Source: Cyanidioschyzon merolae (lineage: Eukaryota). From it: a stretch of 64,000 nt of DNA. Positions 7,580 through 63,078 of the stretch are shown here, in pieces. The stretch lies in the NCBI GenBank assembly GCA_000091205.1, contig AP006501.2; one strand, 5' to 3'. Both the position numbers and the translations under genes were made by a program. Below the pieces are notes generated by a model. The model saw nothing but the letters and a program-made list of their open reading frames with translations. It searched no databases and was not told the origin of the DNA. The stretch's first letter is position 1, and every line of letters starts with the position of its first letter.

Positions 7580-8228
7580 CCCGGGTGCCGTGCGACGCCC
7601 ACGAAGTGATCTTTTTCGATAACAAGACGTTTATATGGACCATGGATCCTTTGTTGCTGGATCGGTAATGATATTCGAAAGAGCATCGATCGTAGTGATG
7701 CAGATCATTTCCAAGTTCCATTACTTTTACTTCCTTTCCGATATAATGGTCGTTTGTGCGTTTTCGCGTACCGCGAGTACCTGCAGTATGCATCCGCTTT
7801 AGCGCTTATAGCGCAGGTCAGGATACAGCACGGAGACAGAAGGGCTTTTCCGTACCACGAAGGGCGTCGGCTGGAGGTCTAGTTTGCCCGACACGGTGTT
7901 GGAGTCCATGATCATGCTGGGAGCCTGCAAGCTGCGCAGACGGACGCACTGCATGCGGCAGCGTGAATGGATATCGTAGGGGTCCACTACGACCAGGGCG
8001 AAACCTAAACGCAGATTACCTGCTCCTAGTCGCTGAAAGAACAGCGTTGCGAATGAGTTGCGCACATCTCTCCACAGCACCTGCCACTGGTCGGGAGCAC
8101 GAAGCACAAGCTCGGCTGACTCGTCCGGCTCGCGAGACCTTCGGCCTAGAGGGTAAACATTCGACAATATGGTAATCGTTTCCCCCGTTTAACGTATATC
8201 GTAACTGGGGAAATAAATTGGTATTGGA

Positions 8229-10167
8229 TTGCCAGATAGTAGTGAGTTTCGGTTCTTTGTTCGATACAGTGCGGTCGACAGGCGCACCTGGGAGATCTGG
8301 CAGTCACGAGGGAACGAAAGCCACGCAGATTACCGCCTCAACGGTACTCGATACAGAGATAACGGGGATATTTATGCCTGCGGGGCGATTGAGTGCGTCA
8401 CGTACCTGAAGAAACATTTGACCATGAACCCCGAACGTTTCATGATACGCTCCATCTTTGCACTCTACCCAGGTCTCGTTCGCAAAGGGATATGGATTAT
8501 CGTCGATGGCATCTTTAACGATAGTAAGAATGAAGAGAAGATCGAATTCGTCGACGAGAAGGCATCAAGCAGGCGAAGGAATGAGGCTTCTGTAATCTGT
8601 GCGGCTGTTCAAGAGCATCGTGAAGTCTTGGGGCTGGCCAATCCAACAGAAGAGATATCAGAGTTGAAAAACGATGAAGAAAGATACCATCCCCTCATCC
8701 TGTGCTATTTCGTGTTTTTGGACGGAGAACTCGAACGCGAGTCCGAAACGGAGCTGGGCGTGCGGAAAAATGAACTGTCGGAGAGACGAAAGGCTCCGCT
8801 TCTGGGGAACCACGTCAGTGTCGTTCCGTTATACAGCATCAACTCGCACGTTGTGTCTATCAGTTCCAGAGTCCTTCATGGCATTATCAGGGAGATCTGT
8901 TCGGAATTCAGCGTAAGCAGGGAGGAGTTCACCGGCGAAAATCGGGAGACGTACTGGAAGAACATCTTCGATTCCAGACGTCAGAAAGTTAGCAAGCAAA
9001 AGGTATTTACTGGGATGATCGAAACCGATGGGGTAGCCATTTGTGTACACCATCGACACTTGAAGGTGGATCGTTCTATTATGTCTTCGGCTTCGCCCGT
9101 GACGACGAATGAAGATGAGAAGGGGGCGGGTCCTGCGACGCAGAAAGTGCATAAAAACGACTTTGTCGTTGGTGCGGCGAAGCATGAAGATGAGAAGGAG
9201 GCGGCTCCTGCGACGCAGAAAGTGCATAAAAACGAGTTTGTCGTTGGCGTGGACCCTGGGACTACGAATATCATAACCATCGCAGAATCCAAGCGTGCAG
9301 AAGATGGTATTTACGGCAACCTACGTCAGAAAGACATGCGTCTGTTGAGGTTCTCGAGAGCGAGATAGTATCGAGAATCGGGAAACATGAATGCGAGGAA
9401 GAAAATTGCTGCATGGAATGCAGGAATGAAGGAGCACCTGGAAGCTATGAGCAAGGTGACGAGCCGCGGAGCGGACTTTGACGCTTTTCGGGAGTTCATG
9501 GAAGTTCGCATTGCGCATTGGGATGCGCTGTGGGAGGAGTATACAAAGCCCCGGTGGGCTCGTTTGCGTATGAACCTGTACTGCGGGAGGCAGCGTGCAT
9601 TTGCGAATTTTTTCAATGCGTTGAGCGCCTTGAAGGAGGACGAAAGTCAGAGGCTCGTAGTAGCGTACGGAGCAGGGCGCTGGAAGACCCAAAAAGGGAC
9701 TAGGCCAGCTCCAACGACAAGAACGTACAAGGAATGTGCACGGCGTTTTGCTACGATACCGATCGATGAGTTCCGAACATGGTATACACACCATGAACTG
9801 GGGCGTACAATTCAGAGGGTCAAGATGGAAACGTGTCAGCGGAGCCCTGAGGATATAGCAAAGTACGGACCGCTGACGGAGGAGCAAATGGAAAGGCGAG
9901 CGAAAGTGCGAGGGCTACTTACATCAGTAAGTACAACCAACGACGGCAAGAAACGTATGGAGTTTGGGAATCGTGAATTTTAACTCCGCTATCAATATAA
10001 AGAGATGTGCGGTGATGGAAACAAGACCTCCGGCGTTGACACGAAGGAGTTTTGTGGGACAACCTCTCAAAGTGGAACTATATGAGAAAAAATTGAAGCC
10101 AATTGTAGGTAGCCAATCCAAAAAAGCGGGGAGGCGTCTGCACCTCAGTTGGAGACGTTTTATCTGA
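8229..10167 (+). pseudogene. TnpB/Fanzor-like RuvC nuclease gene, disrupted (in-frame TAG at 9366-9368, frameshift near 9975)
   Basis: RuvC-I-like motif [15 protein letters not shown] in ORF 8229-9368. RuvC-III-like motif NREFNSAINIKRCAVME spans the 9387-9983 and 9964-10167 ORFs. A degenerate zinc-finger region lies between them. The overall order matches TnpB. Confidence 0.65.
9111..9260 (+). repeat. Tandem 75-bp duplication (2 units) immediately preceding and including the RuvC-I strand
   Basis: The units are gaagatgagaagg(g/a)ggcgg..cctgcgacgcagaaagtgcataaaaacga(c/g)tttgtcgttgg.. repeated. Translated, they are [25 protein letters not shown] and [25 protein letters not shown]. The same duplication is present in copy B at about 42583-42732. 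Confidence 0.7.
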
Positions 10168-10255
10168 AGCGCGTTTGCCGCCACTACCGCATACCGCTGC
10201 GGCCAGTGTTTTTCTTTTGAGAGACGTTTGTTTTCAGGGGTGCTGTCCCTAGCAT
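10168..10255 (+). ncRNA. Conserved non-coding tail 3' of the Fanzor-like ORF; candidate omegaRNA scaffold / right-end sequence
   Basis: About 75 nt directly after the stop are conserved between copy A (gcgcgtttgccgccactaccgcataccgctgcggccagtgtttttcttttgagagacgtttgttttcagg) and copy B (43629-43695, gcgccggtcaccactactttgcactaccgaccacagcgtttttctttagaaaggcgttttttgtcgg). The similarity ends abruptly afterwards. Confidence 0.3.
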
Positions 10256-13164: not shown

Positions 13165-13615
13165 CGGCGTTGCCGGCTGCCAGAAAAACAAGGGAAGAAT
13201 CGTCATTTTGTCGAGTATCGAGCGAAGAAGAGCAAGTGAAGGAAAAGACGCAGAGGGGAAATATGCGAGAAAAAGTGTTTGCCCGACATGACGGTGACGA
13301 GACTCCAAAGGTACAGAGAGCGCGAATTCTAGCAATCCTTGCACTGGTTTGTTGAAATAGAAGCATGAAACGCAAGAAGTTGGTGAAGCTAGACGTCAAC
13401 GCCACAATCAATACAAGACAGTGTGCTTTGCTGAAGACGAGATCCGCGGAGCTGAGGCGGTCCAGCTTCGTGGGACATCCTCTGATACTCGAAGCGGGCC
13501 TGGAGAGAAAGTGAAGCGGATACCACGCGGCAATTCAAAAGAGGCTGAGAGGCGTCTGCGCCTCGGTATTCATTTATCCTCCATGTTCGTGATCTATTCT
13601 TTGTTTCATTGACAT
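13165..13615 (+). mobile_element. Internally deleted (MITE-like) derivative of the Fanzor-like element
   Basis: The 5' part matches copy B at 41240-41340 (gccggctgccagaaaaa...). The 3' part matches the C-terminal end of the gene and the tail: DVNATINTRQCALLKTRSAELRRSSFVGHPL corresponds to NREFNSAINIKRCAVMETRPPALTRRSFVGQPL, and ggaggcgtctgcgcctc matches. About 2 kb of internal sequence is missing. Confidence 0.55.
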
Positions 13616-19236: not shown

Positions 19237-20759
19237 CGAACAGAACACTGTACGCAATTGGGTGGATACAGCTCCTGGACACCGGCGAAGAACCTGACGA
19301 GAAACGTGCACAACGATTTGGATGCGGGGCAGCGCATTTGCAGCTCGCTGCATCTGTGCGAGCGCTGCAGTGCGCTTGGATTCGAGAAGCGGTGCGGCGC
19401 TCTGCGATATCAGGTACGGTACACCGGGGTCTTGGTGTCTCCCAGCGTCAAGTGAATGGTGAAAGATTCATATCCCGAGTGTCGCACGTACCTGCGTTGA
19501 GACAGGATCGCTCAGCAGCAGTGGGAGCACCGAGCATCGACATCGTGCAAGTTGTCTTCGGCGCCCGTGTTGCCAGATACAAGTGTACTCTGACGTGTGC
19601 TCCGCATGGACCATGCACAAATGTTTGGAGTGGTATAGCGTACATGGAGTCAAGGGAACGACGCTGCCCGCATTCATATGGAAAGCGTGTTTTAGAGGAG
19701 TGCAGCTGAAAAGGCACCGAGGCATACGCAGTTCTGTGTGTTGCTTACTGGGATGCGTCGCAGGGCTCCGTACCGCATGGCGTATTCTTGGAGATATTCG
19801 GACAAGTATATTTTTTCTCAGCATGTCATGCAGAGATCGTGACGTCACAACATACGCTGAGATATTCTCTATATCAGCATTTGCACAGTAGATAGGTTAA
19901 GAGAGATCTGCGTGATGAAAAGCAGCTCTACGTATTCTTGTCGTCAGCATTTGCGCAGTAGGGTATTCTAGGTGTATAAAAAAAGAACAGAAAATAACCT
20001 CTAACTGGCAATGCGACAACAGTGTCGCTCGACCTCTGTGGTAAGCGTTGAAAGAGGGAAAGGTTTCTATATCTTCGAAAGTTTACCCTCCAGGCAGAAT
20101 GTCCCGCGAGTCGGACGAGTCTGCCAGACCAGTGCTTCATGCTCTCCCTCAGTTGCGGGCGCTGTTGTGAGATCTACGCAGCTTGTCCGCAGCGCAGTTT
20201 ATTCTGGGACTTGGAGCGGGTAGCGTGCTTTTAGGCTTCGCCCTGGTCGCAGTGGACTCCTAGTGGATCGCTTCGCGCTGCCGCAGGCAGGGCGTCTATC
20301 TGCGAAGCTTGCAGGCTCCCAAAATGATTCTGTACTCAGACACCGTGTCGCGCAAACTACGCCTCGGGCCGATGTCGTCAGTGGTACGGGAAAGCCGTTC
20401 TCTCTCGGTGAAGCATCCGCAACAGCGGTTTGTGCAGCGATCGCGGACGATCACAGCAGGCACTCGGCACACAAGAGAACATACGAAACGACCAGTATAT
20501 CCGAGAATAACTATAAGTAATGGAAGTCCGAGGTAGGTGCAGCTTCATAGAAACTTTCCCGAAAGCCAGTATCCATCGATCCTGCAATCTGGGGTCTACG
20601 GTCAATGGATACCATGTTGTTGATTGAGAAAAACGGCGACCTCCTGGTCGCCACCAATACATTCAGAGCGTTCTCGTGGACTACACTTTACAGTGGACTC
20701 AGCGTTTCTATAAACACCAGGCTTGATCCGATTTGGTTCCACATTTGCATGGGTCTCTC

Positions 20760-25824: not shown

Positions 25825-26352
25825 ATCTCAGGCGCTTCAGCCGCGATGATGATTGTCTTCTTTTCCGATGACACAACACATTCACAGTGACCACGGATTC
25901 CAGACTTCGAACTGGATATTGACATTCGGGAAAGCGTCCATCATGTTGCCACACCTTACCTCCAAGTTCTATGATGCATACTTTCTTTCGGACGTGCTGG
26001 TCGTTTTTGTGCGTCCTATCGCGCGCCTAACCCTCTTTGAGCACCCGCCCCAGCACCTAATCCGCCAGAGCAGATACATCATGGAGACAGAACCGCTTTG
26101 CCATACCACGGACGATATCGTCTCGATGGTGCGGAAACCGAGGCGGTTTCCATTGGCCCGCACCCAGGTTGCAGCGGGTGCTGTTCTTCAATAAAATTGG
26201 ACCCAAGGCAACGCGTTCACTTGCAGATGAAAATTAAGTTTAGATCGCGCATAGGGATCCGAGACCTCGACCCATGCCTCGGAATCGTCCAGATCAAACA
26301 GAGTGAGCGGTGCATGGGCCCGCGGTGGTGCCAGCGCGTTCTTACCGCCGCG

Positions 26353-39965: not shown

Positions 39966-40382
39966 AAGAAGTGCCTTTCTGCGGAACACTGCGAACTGTT
40001 ATGGGTCCATGCGTCCACGCTGCACACGACCGTCGGTAGGACACGTGGCTGCACCGCGTTCCCCGTTCCAGTCCGGTCGATGCGGTACCGTCAACAACCG
40101 CACTGGAGACGTGCTCTTCCAGAGTTCTACCTACGCGTAAACTAAGACCGCGGCGGGTACGTGCGCTTCTTATGGACCCTCTGTGGGTACCCGGCAGAAC
40201 TCGCTAGCGGTCGGGTAACGAGCGCACCACTGCTACGGCTCCTGTACAGGGGCTTCGGCGACGGTGCCTGCGCACTCTCTTTTCTTTTCGCTCACCAAAC
40301 GTTTATGTTGTACCTGGATCCCTTATCGCGGGACGAGAACTGGCTATCGGGAAAACGCCCATCGTGATACGCCTCACCCTCA

Positions 40383-43300
40383 AGTTCCATTCCTTACAAT
40401 TCCTTTCGGATGTACTGGTCGTTTCATAGGTTGTAGCGAGCATCGAGTGCCCGTCGTGCTGCATCCACCTTGGCGCCTAGACAGCTGGTGCAGATGCACC
40501 TTAGAGACAGAACGGCTTTGCCGTACCACTGGGGGCTTCGGCTCGAGATGTGGTGCACCTGACACGGATTCGGAGTCCATCATCATGCTGGGGGCCTGGA
40601 AACTGCGCTGAAAGAGCTACCGTCTGCGGCAGCTCGAAGCGACATGCCGGGAGTCCACTGCGACCAGGGCGACGCCCAGACGCAGCCTAACTGCTGCTCC
40701 TAGTCCCAGAGTCGACTGCGTTGCGGACGAGGTGTTCAGGTCGCACCACTGCACTAGGCACAGGTAAGGGCGTGAAGCACTAGTCTTGCAGACTCGTTCG
40801 GATTGCGGGACGTTTCGCCCTGAAGGCAAACTTTCGAAAGTATGGAAACCTTTTCGCCCTTTTAACGGCTACCGTGGAATGGGACAGGAATCGTTACATC
40901 GTTTCTCGTGAATCGTTCGTCTCTTTCCTTTTTTTCTCCGAATAGCGCGGTCGATAAGCACACCTGCGAGATCACGCAGTCACGAGAGACGACGCGCATG
41001 TCGCCGATGAAGGGAAACGCGTTTCTAACTATGCTCTGACCTATTGCCCTACCGTACATGTTGTATTCGAATTACAGGCGTAGCGGAGTACAGTTTTTTG
41101 AGTTCAATCGCGTTTGAAACGTCAAGTAAGCATATTCAAGTGATGCTGTGCGGTGTATAGGAGAAGCGTTCAATGTGCGTTCTTTCGCAGAAAAAATTCT
41201 AAAAAAGGAAAGTTATGAGAAAGCAAGTCGACGATCGCGGAGGCGCAGTGTCGCCGGCTGCCAGAAAAAGAACGAAAAACGGTGCCGAGCCCAGGAGCAC
41301 AGGCAAAGACGATGAAGCAGAAGCGGGAGGCCCTACGTCAAAGGCCGCGGGAAAGACAACAGTACGACGAGACGGTGGTGAAAGCGTACCTTCGTAAACA
41401 TATCAAGGATGCCTACAAGGAAAAGTTGCGAGAGGCCATCAGAAACCGTGTCGAGTCGTACTCCACGAGTACGAAGAAGGCTTCGTCAGGACTGATGCAT
41501 ATGATGAACGAGATGCACGACAACGCGACGGACACCAGAACAGTCGAGGTTCCGGGGGAATTTTTCAACAAGACCTTTGCTCGTCACCTGATGGTCGGCA
41601 CAGGGGAGCCGTCGACAAACAATGAGCGAGTGCACGCCTTCCACGAAAACTTCGCGGGATTCGGCTTCGAAGGTGCATCGATACAAGGGTTACGGGGATA
41701 TTCACATCTACGGGCCGATCGAGTACCTCGCGAACCTGAGGAACCATTTGACCATGAACCTCGAAGGTTTCATGATAAGCGCCGTGTTTGCGCTCTACCG
41801 GGGCCTCTCTCGCGGGGAAGAGATGGGCCATCTTCGCTGCCATCACCAACGATCGTCAGCATGAACAGGCAATAGAATTTGTCGACAAGATGACATCACG
41901 CAGGAGCATGAATGAAGCATATGTGATCGGTGCAGCTATTCAAGAGCGTCGTGGTGACACGGAGGTAGGGGGTTGGATAGATACTTCACCTCGCACTGAA
42001 AAAATATCACAAAAAGTAAGGAAAGTAAAATGCGCATAATCGGAGAACGCTGGCCCAAGTAAACGTTTTGTCCATGGAAAAAAAGAGCATCGTGAAGTCT
42101 TGGGGCTGGCCAACCCGACAGAAGACGTGTCAGATATGAAAAAAGTGAGAAAAGATGGTACCCCCGCATCCTGCGCTACTTCGTGTGTCTGGACCGAGAA
42201 CTCGAACGCAAGGCGGAGATGGTGCTGGGTGTGTGGAAAAATGAAGAGTCGCGGAGACGGAACGCTTTCCCAATGGGGAAGTGCTTCAACGTGGTTCCAA
42301 TGAGCAACATCAAGTCACATTTTGTGACTATCGACCAAGGCGTCCACTACGGCAACATGAGTGAGATCAGTCCGGTGTTCGGTGTCAGCAGGGAGGAGTT
42401 CACCGGTGAAAATCGGGAGACGTACCGGAAGAGTCTCTTCGGTTTCAAACGTCTCAAAGTGAGCAAGCAGAAGGTATTCACGGGGATGATCGGAACCGAT
42501 GGCGTAGCCACGTGTGTACGCTATCGGAGGTTTGAAGGCGGATTGTCCAGTTCGGCCTTCGATATCGCCCGTGACGAAGCATGAAGAAAACAGGGAGGAG
42601 GATCCTGCCACACAGAAAGTGCAGGATAACGACTTTGTCGTTGACGCGACGAAGCGTGAAGATGAGATGGAGGCGGGTCCTGCTACGCAGAAAGTGCAGG
42701 ATAACGACTTTGTCGTTAGTGCGGATCCCGGGAACACAAATATCATAACCATCGCAGTACCCAAGCGTGCGGAAGATGGTATCAACGGCAACCTACGTCA
42801 GACGGCCCTGCGAGTTTTAAGGTTCTCGTGAGCGGGATGCTATCGAGAATCCGGTATGATCAATGCGAGGAAGAAAATTGAGACACGGAATGCAGGAATG
42901 AAGGATCACCTGGAAGCTTTGCGCGGAGTAACGAGCAGAGGAGCAGGCTTTGAAGCTTTTCCGATATTCATGGAAGGTCGCGTTGCTCATTGGGATGCGC
43001 TGCTGGAGGAGTATACAAAGCCCCGGTGGGCTCGTCTGCGTATGAATCTGTACGGTGGTAAGCAGCGGGCATTCGCCAAATTTTTCAGTCAGTTGAGTGC
43101 CTTGAAGGAGGACGAGAGCCAGAGGCTGGTAGTGGCATACGGAGCAGGGCGTCCACAAAAGGGTGCACACCAGCTCCGTCGACGAGAACGTACAAAGCGT
43201 GTGCACGGCGCTTTGTAATGATACCGATTGATGAGCTCCGAACGTCCTATACACACCACGAACTGGGGTGCACACTTGAGACGGTCGACATGGAAAAGTG

Positions 43301-43695
43301 CCAGCGGAGTCCTGAAGATATGAAAAAGTATGGAGCGCTAACGGAGGAGCAAATGGACAGGAGGGCGAAAGTTCGTGGACTACTCGCATTAGTAAGTACA
43401 ATCAATGGCAAGAAACGCATGGAAATTGTTAACCGCGACTTTAACGCGGCTACCAATATAAGGAGGTGCGCGGTGATGGAGAGAAGACCTCCGTACTTGA
43501 CAAGAGGGAATTTTGTAGGGAAACCTCTCGAGGTGGAATTATACGAGAAAAAGTTGAAACCGGTAGTAGGTGGCCGGTCCAAAAACACTGGGATGCGTCG
43601 ACAAGTCTGTAGAAGACTTTTCGTCTAGGGCGCCGGTCACCACTACTTTGCACTACCGACCACAGCGTTTTTCTTTAGAAAGGCGTTTTTTGTCG
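40383..43695 (+). mobile_element. Fanzor-like element, copy B: 5' module plus full-length but frameshifted nuclease gene plus conserved 3' tail
   Basis: Homologous to copy A along its whole length. It has an extra ~630-bp N-terminal coding segment (41010-41640) that is absent from copy A. Confidence 0.6.
41215..43628 (+). pseudogene. TnpB/Fanzor-like RuvC nuclease gene, disrupted (at least 5 frame changes and an in-frame TGA at 42829-42831)
   Basis: The N-terminus is basic and NLS-like (KQKREALRQRPRERQ...). The RuvC-I motif is [15 protein letters not shown] (42514-42831) and the RuvC-III motif is NRDFNAATNIRRCAVMERR (43218-43628). The coding sequence is split over ORFs 41282-41875, 41622-41864, 41788-42039, 42183-42584, 42514-42831, 42856-43218 and 43218-43628. 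Confidence 0.65.
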
Positions 43696-46323: not shown

Positions 46324-47680
46324 CCGCGTAGAATGAAACTGGAACAATGTTCCGCTCGCTCTGCACTCGTCTTGCGATTTGATTCGCAAAAGTTCTTGGA
46401 TGCACAGCATCGATACGCCAAGTGCAGCAACAACGGCTTACGGACTCAAACGTAGTTTTCGGGATTCTCGGTCGGGCGTTTTTCTCTCGGAGTGACCTGT
46501 TCGTCGTCCATTCACCGCTGGAATGCGTTCCGTCGCCAGATTCATGTTGAGTCGCGCCACCCTCGAACCAGCGTCCCTGGCATAACCTATTTTATGATCG
46601 AATGCATTGGGGCAAGCATCCATTCTTCTGATTTTTTCAAGTATGGGATGCTCAAATCGCGCATTCCTCAATATGTCGTATCTCTATGTTTCGGGGCCAT
46701 TGGTGGATGCAGCGATTCGCGGCCCCGGATTCACGACGGCTCAAGAGACGCGATGTCGTCTCCTGGACGCTTGTGCACCAGCTGATGCCCAGAGTTCGCC
46801 GCAATGGTCTCAGGTCAAACGATCGCTTCCGTTCGAAGCACGAGTCCGCCGCTCTGCACGGCTATCGACGAAACATCGTCCGGCAGCAACACGAGCCTCT
46901 CACGGGATATGCATTCGAAGGCTCCCATCGCTTTCATTTGCATGAACAGCGGTCTTGGACTCGGAGTCGAGACGTCGCAGGAATCGCGGCCAGTGGAGCG
47001 CTCGGTACCGTACGGCACGAGCGGGACGTTGACGGATCCAAGGCGTTTTGGCCTGCTTGCCGGCCTGGACTTGACGCTTACGGTACTTGTTGCACGGTGG
47101 ACGGCATCGCGTTCCCTAAACCCTCCTTCGGATGGAACGCGCTGCACTTGCGCGTGCAGCGCACACCGTACTCGCCGATGCGATCTGCCCTGACTAGCGC
47201 CCGTGATCGTAGCGTACGGCACCGGGCGCGGAAACGGCGGAGCGCATACAGGGGATCCCGCGGTACCCGTCAAGACCGTGTATCGAGCGATGAAGCGCGC
47301 CTTCAGATGACGCAGTGCAGGGTGTGGCGGAGAACGTGCCGCGCGCACACAGGAACTCGTGATACGAGTCAGGAGTCACGGCTGCACCCCAGGAAGGCTC
47401 GTGAATCGCAACTTGCGCCTGTACATGAAGTGCGTCGACGATACCGGGGAGCTGCGAAATCGGGACGTGCACGTTGGCCTCAACATCGTTCAACAGCTGA
47501 CGTCGGAGCTGGATGTGCGGGAGGTACCGGCGTTTATCACTCTGCAGGGAATTCGGAGAAAAGAAAGAGGCAGGCACAGAAAGCGCACGACGACGACGCA
47601 TGGATACGTAGCAATCGGAAGAATCGGGAAAGATAGGTTGTGGGCGCGAGATTCACCTCGTGGACCTGTCAAGATACATA
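46324..47680. repeat. Left arm of a 1.35-kb, ~99% identical inverted repeat
   Basis: Reverse-complement identity with 51523-52880 was checked directly on several stretches. Identical 316-aa ORFs (46686-47636 on plus, 51566-52516 on minus) differ at 2 residues. Confidence 0.85.
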
Positions 47681-50114: not shown

Positions 50115-50639
50115 GGTGTTCGCTTATTGCCTCTGAGCGAGTAGTGATTCGTTCCGTTAACAACACAGCGTTGCCGCGGACACAACGCTCGATCGTTGGT
50201 CTATCCAGAAAGAGGAGATCCGCCAGCCTGCAGCGAAGCGATGTTTCCTCCTGTCGTGTGCAAACACTCTGAAGCGCAACTCGTGGACGATTGGAGACCG
50301 GCGCGAATGCGACGCTGCGGACGGCACGACGAGGCGGTGTGTCCATTTATTACCATCTCGTACCATCTTTTCCTTTTATGGACTTATTTGGATCAGATGG
50401 AATCGTCCTGCACGACGAGGTGTCGTGTCCTTTGATTGCAAGTTTATCTGATTTGTTTCGTTCATTACAAAGATGTAAAAGATATCTTTCGTAGTCCCTG
50501 CATGTGCGTTCCGCTTATGCGTGTGTGACACCAAATTCATGCCGACCTGTGAGCTCAGATCGCGCACTCGATACCCGTGGTTGGGAAGGTGTCCATGATT
50601 CTAAGCCCCGCCTCCATGTTCGATGACCTACACTTCTCC

Positions 50640-50800
50640 TCGGCGACACTAACTGTTTCGTATGCTCCATTGTACGCCGGGCCTTCACGAAGCGGTCTCA
50701 TGAGCGCCTAACAGCGCCTGTGCGGAGGTTGCTCGGAGACAGAACGGCTCTGCCGCACGACCGGGGAGGCCGGCTCGAGCATACATGTTTCATGAATGGC
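50640..50800 (+). mobile_element. Solo fragment of the Fanzor-like element 5' module
   Basis: agcgcctaacagcgcctgtgcggaggttgctcggagacagaacggctctgccgcacgaccggggaggccggctcgag is homologous to copy B 40470-40545 and copy A 7800-7875. Confidence 0.5.
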
Positions 50801-51522: not shown

Positions 51523-52880
51523 ATCAATCTTGACAGGTCCACGAGGTGAATCTCGCGCCCACAACCTATCTTTCCCGATTCTTCCGATTGCTACGTATCC
51601 ATGCGTCGTCGTCGTGCGCTTTCTGTGCCTGCCTCTTTCTTTTCTCCGAATTCCCTGCAGAGTGATAAACGCCGGTACCTCCCGCACATCCAGCTCCGAC
51701 GTCAGCTGTTGAACGATGTTGAGGCCAACGTGCACGTCCCGATTTCGCAGCTCCCCGGTATCGTCGACGCACTTCATGTGCAGGCGCAAGTTGCGATTCA
51801 CGAGCCTTCCTGGGGTGCAGCCGTGACTCCTGACTCGTATCACGAGTTCCTGTGTGCGCGCGGCACGTTCTCCGCCACACCCTGCACTGCGTCATCTGAA
51901 GGCGCGCTTCATCGCTCGATACACGGTCTTGACGGGTACCGCGGGATCCCCTGTATGCGCTCCGCCGTTTCCGCGCCCGGTGCCGTACGCTACGATCACG
52001 GGCGCTAGTCAGGGCAGATCGCATCGGCGAGTACGGTGTGCGCTGCACGCGCAAGTGCAGCGCGTTCCATCCGAAGGAGGGTTTAGGGAACGCGATGCCG
52101 TCCACCGTGCAACAAGTACCGTAAGCGTCAAGTCCAGGCCGGCAAGCAGGCCAAAACGCCTTGGATCCGTCAACGTCCCGCTCGTGCCGTACGGTACCGA
52201 GCGCTCCACTGGCCGCGATTCCTGCGACGTCTCGACTCCGAGTCCAAGACCGCTGTTCATGCAAATGAAAGCGATGGGAGCCTTCGAATGCATATCCCGT
52301 GAGAGGCTCGTGTTGCTGCCGGACGATGTTTCGTCGATAGCCGTGCAGAGCGGCGGACTCGTGCTTCGAACGGAAGCGATCGTTTGACCTGAGACCATTG
52401 CGGCGAACTCTGGGCATCAGCTGGTGCACAAGCGTCCAGGAGACGACATCGCGTCTCTTGAGCCGTCGTGAATCCGGGGGCGCGAATCGCTGCATCCACC
52501 AATGGCCCCGAAACATAGAGATCCGACATATTGAGGAATGCGCGATTTGAGCATCCCATACTTGAAAAAATCAGAAGAATGGATGCTTGCCCCAATGCAT
52601 TCGATCATAAAATAGGTTATGCCAGGGACGCTGGTTCGAGGGTGGCGCGACTCAACATGAATCTGGCGACGGAACGCATTCCAGCGGTGAATGGACGACG
52701 AACAGGTCACTCCGAGAGAAAAACGCCCGACCGAGAATCCCGAAAACTACGTTTGAGTCCGTAAGTTGTTGTTGCTGCACTTGGCGTATCGATGCTGTGC
52801 ATCCAAGAACTTTTGCGAATCAAATCGCAAGACGAGTGCAGAGCGAGCGGAACATTGTTCCAGTTTCATTCTACGCGGGT
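51523..52880. repeat. Right arm of the 1.35-kb inverted repeat (reverse complement of 46324-47680)
   Basis: See left arm. The inner boundary is ...ctcgtggacctgtcaagat on both arms. The outer boundary is ccgcgtagaatgaaactgg. Confidence 0.85.
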
Positions 52881-59869: not shown

Positions 59870-60090
59870 TCCACTCACAGGCACCCCGCAGCCTTTTTCG
59901 ACCAGCCCCCTGTTATCGGCTTCAGCTTCTCTCCGTACACTTCGAGCCCGAGAGGCTACCCCACGGAGTTGGATGGCGCCAGCTCCTCGGATCTCGTCTT
60001 CAGCACTAGACATCATCTCATCTTGATGGCGGCGTTGAAGTCTCGGTTCACAAACTCCTTGCATCCATTGCCGCTGGTGGAACACATTCA
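59870..60090 (-). mobile_element. Solo 3'-terminal fragment of the Fanzor-like element (minus strand)
   Basis: The reverse complement encodes STSGNGCKEFVNRDFNAAIKMR, a RuvC-III motif. It continues with homology to the copy A/B C-terminal coding and tail sequence (gctgaagccgataacagggggctggtcgaaaaaggctgcggggtgcctgtgagtgga). Confidence 0.5.
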
Positions 60091-60786
60091 TGCAAGGATT
60101 CCTTGAACTCGCGCCCTCTATGCCATTACAGTCTCGTAATCCTTCTATTGGGCAAACATATTTTTGTTTGCCTATCTCCCCTCCCCCTCTTCCTTTTCGA
60201 TATATGCTCTTCTTCACTCGTTAGTCGGCAAGAACAGAAACGTTTATGTGTTTTTCCTGCAGCCCGTAATGAAGGCCCTCCACCATCCCCGACTTCCATG
60301 TCCATACCTCTCCCTTGTATTTTTCATTTCTTCAAATGAACGTACTTCGAACACATCTGCTATAAACAGCGAATAAGCGTTTGATGATACGCTTCTTGAG
60401 ATGGAACCTAAATGAATCGAAAGAGTAGAGGAGCCAGACGGGTATGAGGTCGAAACTAATCTGAAACAATTTAGTATAAAATTTGCAACTGCGGTACGCT
60501 GGACCCCCGCGATCGCTATGAAGCGTTCCCCGAAATCATTTTCATACCAGTAATTCTCTTACTTTAACCAGAGGCCAGACTTGGCGCGGTACGAGATTCT
60601 CAGGCTCTTCCTCTAAGTTTCTCAGTGGAACAGGGACCGACGGCGTCACTGTTGCTGTTGCGGAAGAGTCCGAGCTCGTGCTTCGTCTGTGGCTTTCGGA
60701 CGCGAAACACTTGTTGCTAACAGGCAGCTCACACACACGCACAGGAGCGTACCAGTGCTCCGCGACGTACGGTGATACTCGACTGC

Positions 60787-63078
60787 ATGGAGCAGCGTGC
60801 AAGGGGACTGGCGGCGCAGCAGCCGTGCATATCGGGCTTTGTTTTGGTAGCACAAAGTCGAATGCCCTTTTTGCGAAGTCTGACGGGTCCGCTGCAGCCC
60901 CGAGGGGCGTTGTTCGCCCGCACTGGGTCGCCAATCGCACGGAGCGTAGCACCACAGGCGGCGCTTCGCTTCGAATCCCTCCGTGGTACTGGTACTCGAG
61001 CAGTAATGGGGTTTGCCCCTGTCTCAAGTGTTGAAGCGGCTCTCCCTAGACCACCTTCAAGGTACGCAGGCAGTATCGCTGGGAGCCGATCATCGTTTAC
61101 AAGTTGCGAAGAGCTTTGCAGGAAACCCGTCTGGACTAGGCTTCCGTCGCCCGCTACTTTAGGCAGGATGCCGCGATATGCATCGATAATAGTGCGTTCC
61201 CGCTCCAGCAATACCAACCGAGCCCTCCGATTCTTGGACATGCATCGCGGCGGTACCGCTAAGGCCAGCCAGGAAGTGACCCCGTGGTATCAGTATGATG
61301 CTCGCTGGTCCCAGGTTTTATCGAACCCTACGAATGTTCTTGAACTTCCGCCGCTGCCGCCGCATCTGGTGCGGGTGCGCTTTGCGCCATCCCCAACAGG
61401 GAACCTGCACGTCGGCGGAGCCCGCACCGCGCTCTTCAATTGGCTCTATGCACGCAATCAAGGAGGTTATTTCATCATACGGATCGAGGACACTGATCAA
61501 GCTCGTTCGAGTCGTGCCTCTGAACTCGCCGTTCTGCGGGACTTGCGATGGCTTGGCCTCGACTGGGACGAGGGTCCAGCTTATCCCGATGAGCCGACCA
61601 CCGAGCCGTACCGCGGGGAACGCGGCCCCTACCGCCAGTCCGAGCGATCTGCCATCTATGAGGCTGCAGCAGCGAAACTCATCGAATCGGGAGCAGTCTA
61701 TCCCTGCTTCTGTACCGAGGAACAACTGGAACGGAAACGTCGTTTGGCTGAGGCAGAACATCGTGCGCCCCAGTACGATGGTACCTGTCGCGATGCAGAT
61801 CCAGCCCTTATCCGCAAACGGCTGCAACGCGGGGACCCGTACACCTTACGGTTCCGAGTACCTGCTGGGACTCGTGTGGAAATCAGGGACGTTATTCGTG
61901 GCGATATTGCCTGGGACGCGAACGCAACGATTGGTGATTTTATTATCGTGCGTTCTTCAGGTCTACCGGTCTATAATTTTTGCGTCGCAGTAGATGATGC
62001 GCTTATGGGTATCACCACGGTCATCCGTGCAGAAGAGCATCTGACGAATACGCTGCGACAGGCTCTTATTCTGGATGCGCTTGGCTATGACCGACCCCAG
62101 TATGCGCATGTTTCGCTGATTCTCGGAGCGGACCGCCAAAAGCTCAGCAAACGGCACGGGGCCACGTCAATCGATCAGTACGCACGTGAAGGATTTCTTC
62201 CAGAAGCCATGATGAATTACTTGGCGCTCCTTGGATGGAATGACGGTACGGAAAGGGAAATCTATTCGGTGGAGGAGCTCATCAAGGCGTTCTCCCTTGA
62301 CCGCATCACCAAGTCGGCGGCTGTTTTTGACGCAAACAAACTTCGATGGATGAATGGACTTCATTTGAGATCCATGCCTCCGGAGAAATTATGCGGTGTC
62401 CTCATTAGATTCTGGTTGGATGCGAACGTCATTCAGCGACCTGCAGAGGAGATTGACGTTGATGTGCCAACACGAGCTGCCGCAGGTGTTGCCCAGTCTG
62501 CGTCTGCGTTGCGGTTCTGGGTTTTCACGAGCAGGGCAACGGAGCTGTTACGTGGTTCCATAGAATTAGCTAAGGATTGTGTGCCCTTGCTACAAGATAT
62601 CCTGGAATATCCACTGGAAGAAACAATTGAAAGTGGCGATTCGGATGAATTGCTCACTCCACAGGGCGGATTCCTTGACATTGCCACCGCGGTGCTGGAG
62701 CGTTACAGAAAGGGCGAAATTCCTTTTGGAGATGAAATTGAGCCTGACCCTGAAATGATGGTTCCAAACGCGCCGTCCCTGACCTCGGAGGATCCCTTTA
62801 TCGAAGACTGGAAAGCGTGGGTCAAAGGTATTGGTACGCAGCTTGGGCGCAAGAGTAAGCGCCTGTTTCATCCTATTCGCTTGGTCATGACGGGCCGCAT
62901 GACTGGCCCGGACGTTGGTGAGATCATGCGCATATTAGGACTTGCGAAAGGGGTTGTCCAAGTGCCATATGTACCACTGTCAGAGCGAATGCGTATTCTG
63001 GAGCGCGTCGTGAAGAAGCTACGGACTGAACGTGAAGCGACTACGTCAAGCCCAAGTTCACCGAACGCCGCGAGGTAG
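60787..63078 (+). CDS. Glutamyl-tRNA synthetase, bacterial/organellar type, with ~185-aa N-terminal and ~150-aa C-terminal extensions
   Basis: HIGH motif VRVRFAPSPTGNLHVGGARTALFNWLYARNQGGYFIIRIEDTD and KMSKS motif KLSKRHG. The sequence is colinear with bacterial GluRS. The N-terminus is presequence-like. The first ATG is at 60787; the ORF-maximal start is GTG at 60772. Confidence 0.9.
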   Translation: MEQRARGLAAQQPCISGFVLVAQSRMPFLRSLTGPLQPRGALFARTGSPIARSVAPQAALRFESLRGTGTRAVMGFAPVSSVEAALPRPPSRYAGSIAGSRSSFTSCEELCRKPVWTRLPSPATLGRMPRYASIIVRSRSSNTNRALRFLDMHRGGTAKASQEVTPWYQYDARWSQVLSNPTNVLELPPLPPHLVRVRFAPSPTGNLHVGGARTALFNWLYARNQGGYFIIRIEDTDQARSSRASELAVLRDLRWLGLDWDEGPAYPDEPTTEPYRGERGPYRQSERSAIYEAAAAKLIESGAVYPCFCTEEQLERKRRLAEAEHRAPQYDGTCRDADPALIRKRLQRGDPYTLRFRVPAGTRVEIRDVIRGDIAWDANATIGDFIIVRSSGLPVYNFCVAVDDALMGITTVIRAEEHLTNTLRQALILDALGYDRPQYAHVSLILGADRQKLSKRHGATSIDQYAREGFLPEAMMNYLALLGWNDGTEREIYSVEELIKAFSLDRITKSAAVFDANKLRWMNGLHLRSMPPEKLCGVLIRFWLDANVIQRPAEEIDVDVPTRAAAGVAQSASALRFWVFTSRATELLRGSIELAKDCVPLLQDILEYPLEETIESGDSDELLTPQGGFLDIATAVLERYRKGEIPFGDEIEPDPEMMVPNAPSLTSEDPFIEDWKAWVKGIGTQLGRKSKRLFHPIRLVMTGRMTGPDVGEIMRILGLAKGVVQVPYVPLSERMRILERVVKKLRTEREATTSSPSSPNAAR

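Follow-up and report, generated by a model that had tools for sequence, protein, structure and literature searches.

What does one copy of a decayed mobile element retain that its neighbor has lost? Two related repeats, copy A and copy B, lie on the plus strand of a 64,000-nucleotide stretch of the red alga Cyanidioschyzon merolae (contig AP006501.2 of assembly GCA_000091205.1; this whole stretch is called the window here). Both contain the remains of one gene, and copy B carries an additional segment near its beginning. A preliminary description of the locus took the gene for a Fanzor, the additional segment for a basic N-terminal extension that resembles a nuclear localization signal (NLS), and copy A for an internally deleted version. 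We found that copies A and B are very probably old, dead copies of CMe-1A, the Fanzor1-carrying interspersed element of C. merolae. This element has been known since 2013, and both the B-only segment and the basic tail belong to its published consensus protein. The preliminary observation was correct and its interpretation largely right, while some of its parts need the corrections given below.

The open reading frame (ORF) at 60772-63078, which encodes the glutamyl-tRNA synthetase GluRS, is identical in 763 of 763 residues to XP_005538846.1 of C. merolae 10D, so that the window comes from the host of CMe-1A. The frame-corrected protein of copy B (757 aa) aligns with the whole published CMe-1 protein of 734 aa, starting from Met1, at 72% identity. 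At the DNA level, our comparison with the published consensus covers its first 630 nucleotides; within this part, consensus positions 1-629 are 79.6% identical to copy B (40289-40924), 78.3% to copy A (7617-8250) and 80.8% to a solo copy on the minus strand (19988-20620). Measured against a consensus of 32 near-full-length copies, copy B is 83.3% and copy A 84.1% identical. According to Bao and Jurka 2013 (Mobile DNA 4:12, PMC3627910), CMe-1A, a Repbase family, comprises ~150 copies that are ~80% identical to their consensus, has no terminal inverted repeats and no determinable target-site duplications, and includes some copies that are still intact; in the supplement of that paper the consensus measures 3169 bp, and its protein has 734 aa encoded by a single exon. 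Nozaki et al. 2007 (PMC1955436) had described an interspersed repeat of C. merolae with an average size of 3.2 kb; its 253 copies account for ~5% of the genome, are dispersed on all chromosomes and contain truncated ORFs with weak similarity to wsv486 of white spot syndrome virus. The relationship of this repeat to TnpB and Fanzor was not recognized in the 2007 paper; one Fanzor1 in the genome of the same virus was described by Bao and Jurka 2013 (PMC3627910). Size, host and the state of the ORFs suggest that the 3.2-kb repeats and CMe-1A are the same elements. The supplementary text of Saito et al. 2023 does not mention C. merolae. The ancestral protein, for which ~800 aa had been estimated, measures 734 aa in the published consensus and 757 aa in the version of copy B, and it had already been reconstructed in 2013. 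A scan of metagenome contigs yielded 71 loci related to the element.

TnpB, an RNA-guided RuvC nuclease of bacteria, has a eukaryotic relative in Fanzor1. The single, intron-less gene of CMe-1A encodes a Fanzor1 protein, as profile, fold and the published CMe-1 protein consistently show, and the Fanzor type assigned to the gene beforehand was thereby confirmed. A search with the frame-corrected protein of copy B retrieved 39 relatives, among them P0001 (752 aa, 61% identity over 95% of the query) and the distant full-length proteins P0038 and P0039 (28% identity). A profile search of 1.84 billion representatives extended this set to 3280 relatives (cluster representatives, E <= 1e-3), which are typically 600-700 aa long and mostly aligned from the N-terminus onward. 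In a 30-member alignment (26-40% identity), D484, E656 and R724-D725-N727 are invariant, and D484, E656 and D725 form the RuvC catalytic triad in the order RuvC-I, II, III; copy B keeps all three catalytic codons. P0001 also contains the motif D-X(125,275)-[TS][TS]-...-RD of Bao and Jurka, with 175 residues from D484 to T659-S660 (in DEFRTS) and NRD at 723-725. Searched against the PDB with hmmsearch, the family profile matched the Fanzor1 structures 9cf0 from Parasitella (1.4e-20), 8gkh from Spizellomyces (1.9e-16) and 9cer from Guillardia (1.1e-8), and nothing other than Fanzor1 below E = 1. The AlphaFold2 model (predicted local distance difference test, pLDDT, 79.5; predicted template modeling score, pTM, 0.76) gave a corresponding result: in a Foldseek search of the PDB, Fanzor1 structures took the first seven places (E 1e-16 to 1e-13, template modeling (TM) score up to 0.71), whereas Cas12 proteins matched only at E 1e-2 or weaker.

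Several results speak against the Fanzor1 assignment and have to be set beside this evidence. Neither the ORF fragments nor the reconstruction matched any Pfam or NCBIfam model above noise, and the only precomputed Pfam family is DUF8286, with a weak match. The C4 zinc finger between the TS and RD motifs is absent from this clade: CMe-1 reads THHELGC...KC at the corresponding site, with at most two His and two Cys, P0038 and P0039 lack the set of zinc-finger residues, and the 30-member alignment has no conserved Cys in the interval from E656 to D725. CMe-1 was nevertheless filed under Fanzor1 by Bao and Jurka 2013 (PMC3627910), despite the state of its zinc finger. A single-sequence phmmer search of the PDB with the protein was also without a match; the homology emerged with profiles only. 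The CMe-1 clade of Fanzor1 may be RNA-guided like its relatives.

Immediately ahead of the RuvC-I Asp, both copies contain a 25-aa tandem repeat (B 42570-42717, A 9098-9249). It is present in one unit in the published consensus, in two units in A and B and in four to six units in metagenome copies, and P0001 and P0006 have additional units as well. This region is predicted to be disordered (P0001 residues 389-470, pLDDT < 50).

A blastn comparison of the copy B region with the whole window identified three blocks in which A and B are direct copies of each other: B 40381-40989 with A 7712-8313 (70%), B 41643-41953 with A 8314-8622 (74%), and B 42083-43694 with A 8611-10235 (78%). Between the first two of these, 653 bp of copy B (40990-41642) are absent from copy A, where the junction falls at 8313/8314. 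The extra ~630 bp that had been placed at 41010-41640 are thus confirmed to within ~20 bp, and so is the internal deletion of copy A. The 653 bp consist of 225 bp of non-coding leader and 428 bp that encode ~143 residues. The majority consensus of 45 copies runs in a single frame after a stop codon (MKKQVDDPGGPGSPAARKKQKTVPSPEEKEEKKNRKGEALRRRRQERRLYDEMVVKT..., beginning with MKKQVDDPGGP), and its N-terminus matches that of the published CMe-1 protein (MEKEVEDPGGPVSPAAGKKRKTVPSPEEQEKTKKQKREARRQRLQERRQYDEMVVKA...), from which we conclude that the ATG at 41215 is the ancestral start codon; Met1 of the published protein aligns at this very position. The peptide quoted in the preliminary description does exist, as the ORF at 41282-41875, but its apparent start MPSPGAQ corresponds to a GTG, and the true ATG is located 23 codons upstream in another frame. 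A programmed frameshift or an intron that would join this ATG to the main frame was considered and ruled out, because copy B and L001, the best metagenome copy, need shifts of opposite sign at ~41270 and the consensus is simply in frame. The two shifts at this place are therefore independent lesions.

In the model of P0001, residues 4-27 form a helix (pLDDT 68-87), which is followed by a strand at residues 28-36 and further helices (pLDDT 87-96). Judged from this model, the B-only segment comprises the basic tail together with the first part of the folded protein and is no detachable extension. The proposed basic extension accordingly has to be narrowed down: a Lys/Arg-rich tail does begin the gene, but only ~50 of the ~143 codons are basic, and the rest belongs to folded domains.

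Could the 653 bp be foreign DNA instead, for example another transposable element that was inserted into a shorter gene of which copy A is the original? Copy B does carry a genuine foreign insert at 41954-42082, and the region upstream of the element is a mosaic of other repeats. The segment itself, however, has a homolog in the same place in 45 other copies (44 of the 71 metagenome loci plus L001, at 71-86% DNA identity), and its coding part matches the first 143 of the 734 residues in the published consensus protein. P0039 residues 3-114 match 41321-41662 (E = 3e-9), and proteins that are only 27-28% identical align along the segment, a combination that excludes chance homology. Moreover, the flanks of the 653 bp are not duplicated, the segment encodes a confidently folded part of the model, and without it copy A has no start codon. 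A foreign origin is therefore exceedingly improbable, and the B-only segment is ancestral gene sequence. The function of the basic tail within this segment is less clear-cut. In copy B, 57 residues at this end contain 16 Lys and Arg against 6 Asp and Glu, with a KRTK motif and a bipartite pattern; in the tail of the CMe-1A consensus, KKQK and KKNR occur together with a bipartite match. These are classical NLS patterns (monopartite K-K/R-X-K/R; bipartite (K/R)2-X10-12-(3 of 5 basic)). We surveyed the tails of 82 family representatives that start with Met, defining the tail as the residues before the ETVVK-type strand. The basic tail was found family-wide, with a median length of 26.5 residues and a Lys plus Arg fraction of 0.32, compared with 0.16 in the remaining protein. 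Of the 82 tails, 41 contain a classical monopartite or bipartite pattern; among control windows of equal length, taken from the same proteins, the frequencies are only 5% and 1%, so that the tails are enriched at least ten-fold. For other Fanzors, Jiang et al. 2023 (Sci Adv, PMC10530073) predicted an NLS in ~60%; of 22 fragments consisting of the N-terminal 100 aa, 21 brought about nuclear import in that study. Given the enriched patterns, the family-wide tail and these published tests, our analysis suggests that the basic tail of CMe-1A probably acts as an NLS. Two features count against this function: the tail is modeled as a helix directly before the first strand and is not disordered, and many relatives share an RPDR motif within it. 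Both could point to a role in nucleic-acid binding or in structure, instead of or besides import. The alternative that the tail is mainly such a helix, contacting for instance guide RNA or DNA, gains further from the K/R-x-RPDR-x-x-K motif, which goes beyond basic composition, and from the classical NLS pattern being present in only half of the family members. We nevertheless regard it as unlikely in view of the enrichment and the import of other Fanzor N-termini; the two roles are, moreover, mutually compatible. Distant Fanzor1 members of DUF8286 share the N-terminal sequence K/R-x-RPDR-x-x-K-x(6-10)-ETVVK, which is more specific than basic composition; its RPDR core is absent from CMe-1.

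A comparable question arises at the left end of the element, where the preliminary description noted a 5' module without a name. The module is indeed present in both copies and represents a known repeat: the 5' 635 bp of CMe-1A are 95% identical to TE-N2_CMe, a separate repeat of ~70 copies that was left unclassified (Bao and Jurka 2013, PMC3627910). All copies share their sequence from ~40945 onward, while at least three recurrent types of upstream flank meet the core at this same point: the TE-N2 module in window orientation, the module reversed and ending in an A-rich variant end, or an unrelated ~900-bp leader with the palindrome GGACACGTGTCC. The module is thus found in either orientation or is absent, which would fit an independent, retroposon-like repeat that lies antisense and recurrently at the left boundary and is not intrinsic to CMe-1A. 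Of 28 distinct TE-N2 hits, 25 retain the end found on the 5' side within CMe-1A and are truncated to varying extents at the other; the retained end is A-rich on the opposite strand. Copy B provides a further hint: its 141-bp block without counterpart in A consists of a 129-bp insert and a 12-bp duplication (11 of 12 positions identical) of a 12-mer that is single in copy A. From this insert, 125-130 bp recur at 13 places in related loci (79-88% identity), always adjoining a TE-N2-type module at the equivalent of 40381 and in inverted orientation; the insert is the alternative end of a TE-N2 variant. Kept end, A-rich tail and 12-bp duplication together resemble 5'-truncated retroposition on the opposite strand, which we treat as a lead and not as a result. 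On the other side, the consensus of ~150 copies includes the module (Bao and Jurka 2013, PMC3627910), and A, B and several diverged metagenome copies share its orientation and junction. The A-runs are short (5-8 nt), and old copies lack detectable target duplications: the flanks of whole copies, of core elements and of solo TE-N2 copies yielded none beyond chance, in agreement with the 2013 paper. An independent module is therefore possible but doubtful, and we continue to regard the module as the 5' part of CMe-1A. More speculative still is the specific proposal that TE-N2_CMe is a retroposon of the short interspersed nuclear element (SINE) type, antisense in CMe-1A, that has inserted many times over, in either orientation, at precisely the left boundary of the cores. 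If it were true, this boundary would be a preferred site of DNA breakage or insertion, the published CMe-1A consensus would be composite, and the true Fanzor element would start at ~40946. The relation between CMe-1A and TE-N2_CMe merits a genome-wide look.

The right end of the element is uniform. About 45 copies lose their likeness directly after ...CGTTCGACTTTCGAA(A/C)GGCGTT, which places the right ends at 43687 in copy B, whose sequence there reads ...GAAAGGCGTT, and at 10228 in copy A. The last ~35 nt form a hairpin of at least 7 bp in 43 of 46 distinct copies. It occurs in at least two stem variants that differ by a U-A to G-C exchange, with G-U pairs also present, and the locus L028 has an unrelated 13-bp stem at its right end. 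This 3' hairpin is a candidate for an omega-RNA scaffold or for an end-recognition hairpin. A structural role is weakened by the modest mean z-score of the hairpin against shuffled sequences (only -1.7), and by RNAalifold, which found no consensus structure in 48 aligned 3' ends (3' 316 nt). Scanning the window for Rfam families and for tRNAs gave no hits.

Table 1. Coordinates of the parts and lesions of the two CMe-1A copies in the window
Feature	Position	Strand	Basis or remark
Copy B, full-length dead CMe-1A	40289..43687	+	3399 bp including the 141-bp insertion block; left end from alignment with the published consensus
5' module of B, TE-N2_CMe-like	40289..40945	+	nhmmer module profile matches 40292-40937; published consensus alignment
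Non-coding leader, conserved among copies	40946..41214	+	homology across all flank types from ~40945; consensus stop just upstream of the ATG
B-only segment, deleted in A	40990..41642	+	blastn breakpoints
Ancestral start codon ATG	41215..41217	+	45-copy consensus; published Met1
Basic NLS-like tail, ~50 codons	41215..41368	+	ends just ahead of the conserved ETVVK strand; broken near 41270
Frameshift 1, +1 nt	41270	+	32-copy consensus alignment; between ATG 41215 and the quoted peptide
Frameshift 2, indels net +1	41646..41677	+	32-copy consensus; peptide mapping ~41675
Frameshift 3, +1	41820	+	32-copy consensus; peptide mapping ~41817
12-bp target-site duplication, left copy AAGAGCGTCGTG	41942..41953	+	read from the sequence
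129-bp foreign insert, A-rich 3' end, with stop codon	41954..42082	+	no counterpart in copy A, P0001 or the published protein
12-bp target-site duplication, right copy AAGAGCATCGTG	42083..42094	+	read from the sequence
Frameshift 4, -1	42146	+	32-copy consensus; peptide mapping ~42155
Frameshift 5, +1	42531	+	32-copy consensus; peptide mapping ~42534
Two tandem 75-bp units (25-aa repeat)	42570..42717	+	self-match 86%
RuvC-I Asp codon (DPGNTNI)	42724..42726	+	invariant D484
In-frame TGA, consensus Arg (RFSRARYY)	42829..42831	+	translation; published protein alignment
Frameshift 6, 7-nt deletion relative to consensus	43151..43157	+	32-copy consensus; peptide mapping ~43155
RuvC-II Glu codon (IDELRTS)	43233..43235	+	invariant E656
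RuvC-III Asp codon (VNRDFNAA)	43437..43439	+	invariant R724, D725, N727
Gene stop codon TAG	43626..43628	+	published protein alignment
Non-coding 3' tail, terminal hairpin ~43664-43687	43629..43687	+	right end of the element
Copy A, CMe-1A with internal 5' deletion, dead	7617..10228	+	blastn; published consensus; 84.1% to the 32-copy consensus
Deletion junction of A, +/- ~20 bp	8313..8314	+	blastn; ATG, ~120-143 codons and all but ~48 bp of the leader lost
In-frame TAG, consensus Tyr (RFSRAR*Y)	9366..9368	+	translation of A
+1 frameshift inside the RuvC-III motif	9976	+	adjacent Asp-to-Glu change, NREF for NRDF

Neither A nor B can make a protein. By three-frame translation and peptide mapping, the coding sequence of copy B runs through frames 2, 0, 1, 1, 0, 1, 1 and 0, and its lesions amount to six frameshifts, one in-frame stop and the 129-bp insert. 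The view that copy B is full-length and requires at least five frame corrections thus holds: five were found by peptide mapping, and the sixth (41270) was added by the 32-copy consensus. Copy A does not join its 5' module directly to the middle of the gene, as had been assumed, since ~48 bp of leader (8266-8313) remain between the two; a tblastn match of P0001 to copy A resumes at residue 121. The ratio of nonsynonymous to synonymous substitutions (dN/dS) is ~0.41 for B against A and likewise for B against L001, which suggests that part of the divergence of these three arose while their lineages still encoded a protein, and that decay followed afterwards. A fully open gene was found in none of the 71 metagenome loci, which tells against an active family; even L001 contains one stop codon and an N-terminal shift. 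With no open copy in this set, it is the 2013 statement of intact genomic copies on which an activity of the family depends.

From these data, an intact element would consist of a ~640-bp 5' module of the TE-N2_CMe type, a ~270-bp leader, the 734-aa ORF and a ~60-nt tail with the hairpin. Its protein would begin with the ~50-residue Lys/Arg-rich tail and pass directly into the first strand and the helices of the folded body. Copy B retained the complete gene and afterwards acquired its frameshifts, stop codon and repeat insertion, whereas copy A lost leader, start codon and ~120-143 codons in a single deletion and subsequently gained a stop codon, a frameshift and the catalytic Asp-to-Glu change.

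Further remnants of the two repeats are scattered over the window. Solo modules of the TE-N2_CMe type are located at 19976-20621 (minus strand), 25866-26154 (plus) and 50537-50792 (plus); one of them is full-length, and two are truncated at the same side. Two short, diverged fragments at 13317-13567 (plus) and 59877-60135 (minus), with 44-48% amino-acid identity to the Fanzor gene, match only its last ~55-60 codons, which cover the RuvC-III region, and part of the tail; the terminal hairpin is missing from both. They are either truncated copies of great age or remnants of 3' ends that stand alone. In the metagenome loci L057 (1517-1975) and L072 (286-433), a copy (~440 bp) of the 3' end of the element is situated just upstream of the ~900-bp alternative leader of a complete element. 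The palindrome within that leader, GGACACGTGTCC, is perfect, and the arrangement may reflect tandem or nested insertion beside a right end. The 129-bp insert of copy B, for its part, looks like a product of 5'-truncated retroposition.

The surrounding genes of the window are intron-less and alternate between the strands; they encode an ankyrin-RING protein, SGF29, a trehalose-phosphate synthase/phosphatase fusion, PP2C, a eukaryotic DDAH and GluRS. The window also contains a perfect inverted repeat of 1352 nt (100% complementary; 46324-47675 and 51527-52878), whose arms are 3851 nt apart. Each arm carries a 316-aa ORF (46686-47636 on the plus strand, 51566-52516 on the minus strand) with no Pfam match; the repeat arose either by recent duplication in inverted orientation or as a feature of the assembly.

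For the annotation of the C. merolae genome, loci A and B should be recorded as degenerate CMe-1A (Fanzor1) copies rather than as genes, and beyond annotation these two loci have little significance. The architecture of the N-terminus reaches further: a basic tail followed by the ETVVK strand is common to DUF8286, a very large and uncharacterized Fanzor1 clade with 3280 cluster representatives at E <= 1e-3. As C. merolae is genetically tractable, an intact copy of CMe-1A would make a convenient natural system in which to study the import and function of a Fanzor.

Compared with the published CMe-1A, copies A and B agree in host and in the 5' module, and copy B is also similar in length (3169 bp against 3399 bp for B including the 141-bp insertion block) and in the protein from end to end, with Met1 and the basic tail; the divergence of the copies from the consensus, 16-20%, matches the published figure. 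There is no difference in kind, A and B being individual degenerate copies, apart from the 25-aa repeat, of which the published consensus has one unit and copy B two. The solved Fanzor1 structures (SpuFz1, 8GKH and 9CEU-9CEZ; PpFz, 9CF0-3; GtFz1, 9CER-T) are alike in overall fold (TM up to 0.71, Foldseek E 1e-16) and have the RuvC D/E/D triad in the same order as CMe-1, with profile E-values of 1e-20 to 1e-8. They share only 12-15% sequence identity with CMe-1, and the CMe-1 clade differs from them in lacking the conserved CxxC...CxxC zinc finger and in having a disordered tandem-repeat insert ahead of RuvC-I. With the Fanzor NLS described by Jiang et al. 2023 (PMC10530073), the CMe-1 tail has in common a basic stretch at the extreme N-terminus, which prokaryotic TnpB lacks, as well as monopartite and bipartite patterns. 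In ApmFNuc of the same study the tail comprises 64 disordered residues, whereas that of CMe-1 is shorter and is modeled as a helix abutting the fold.

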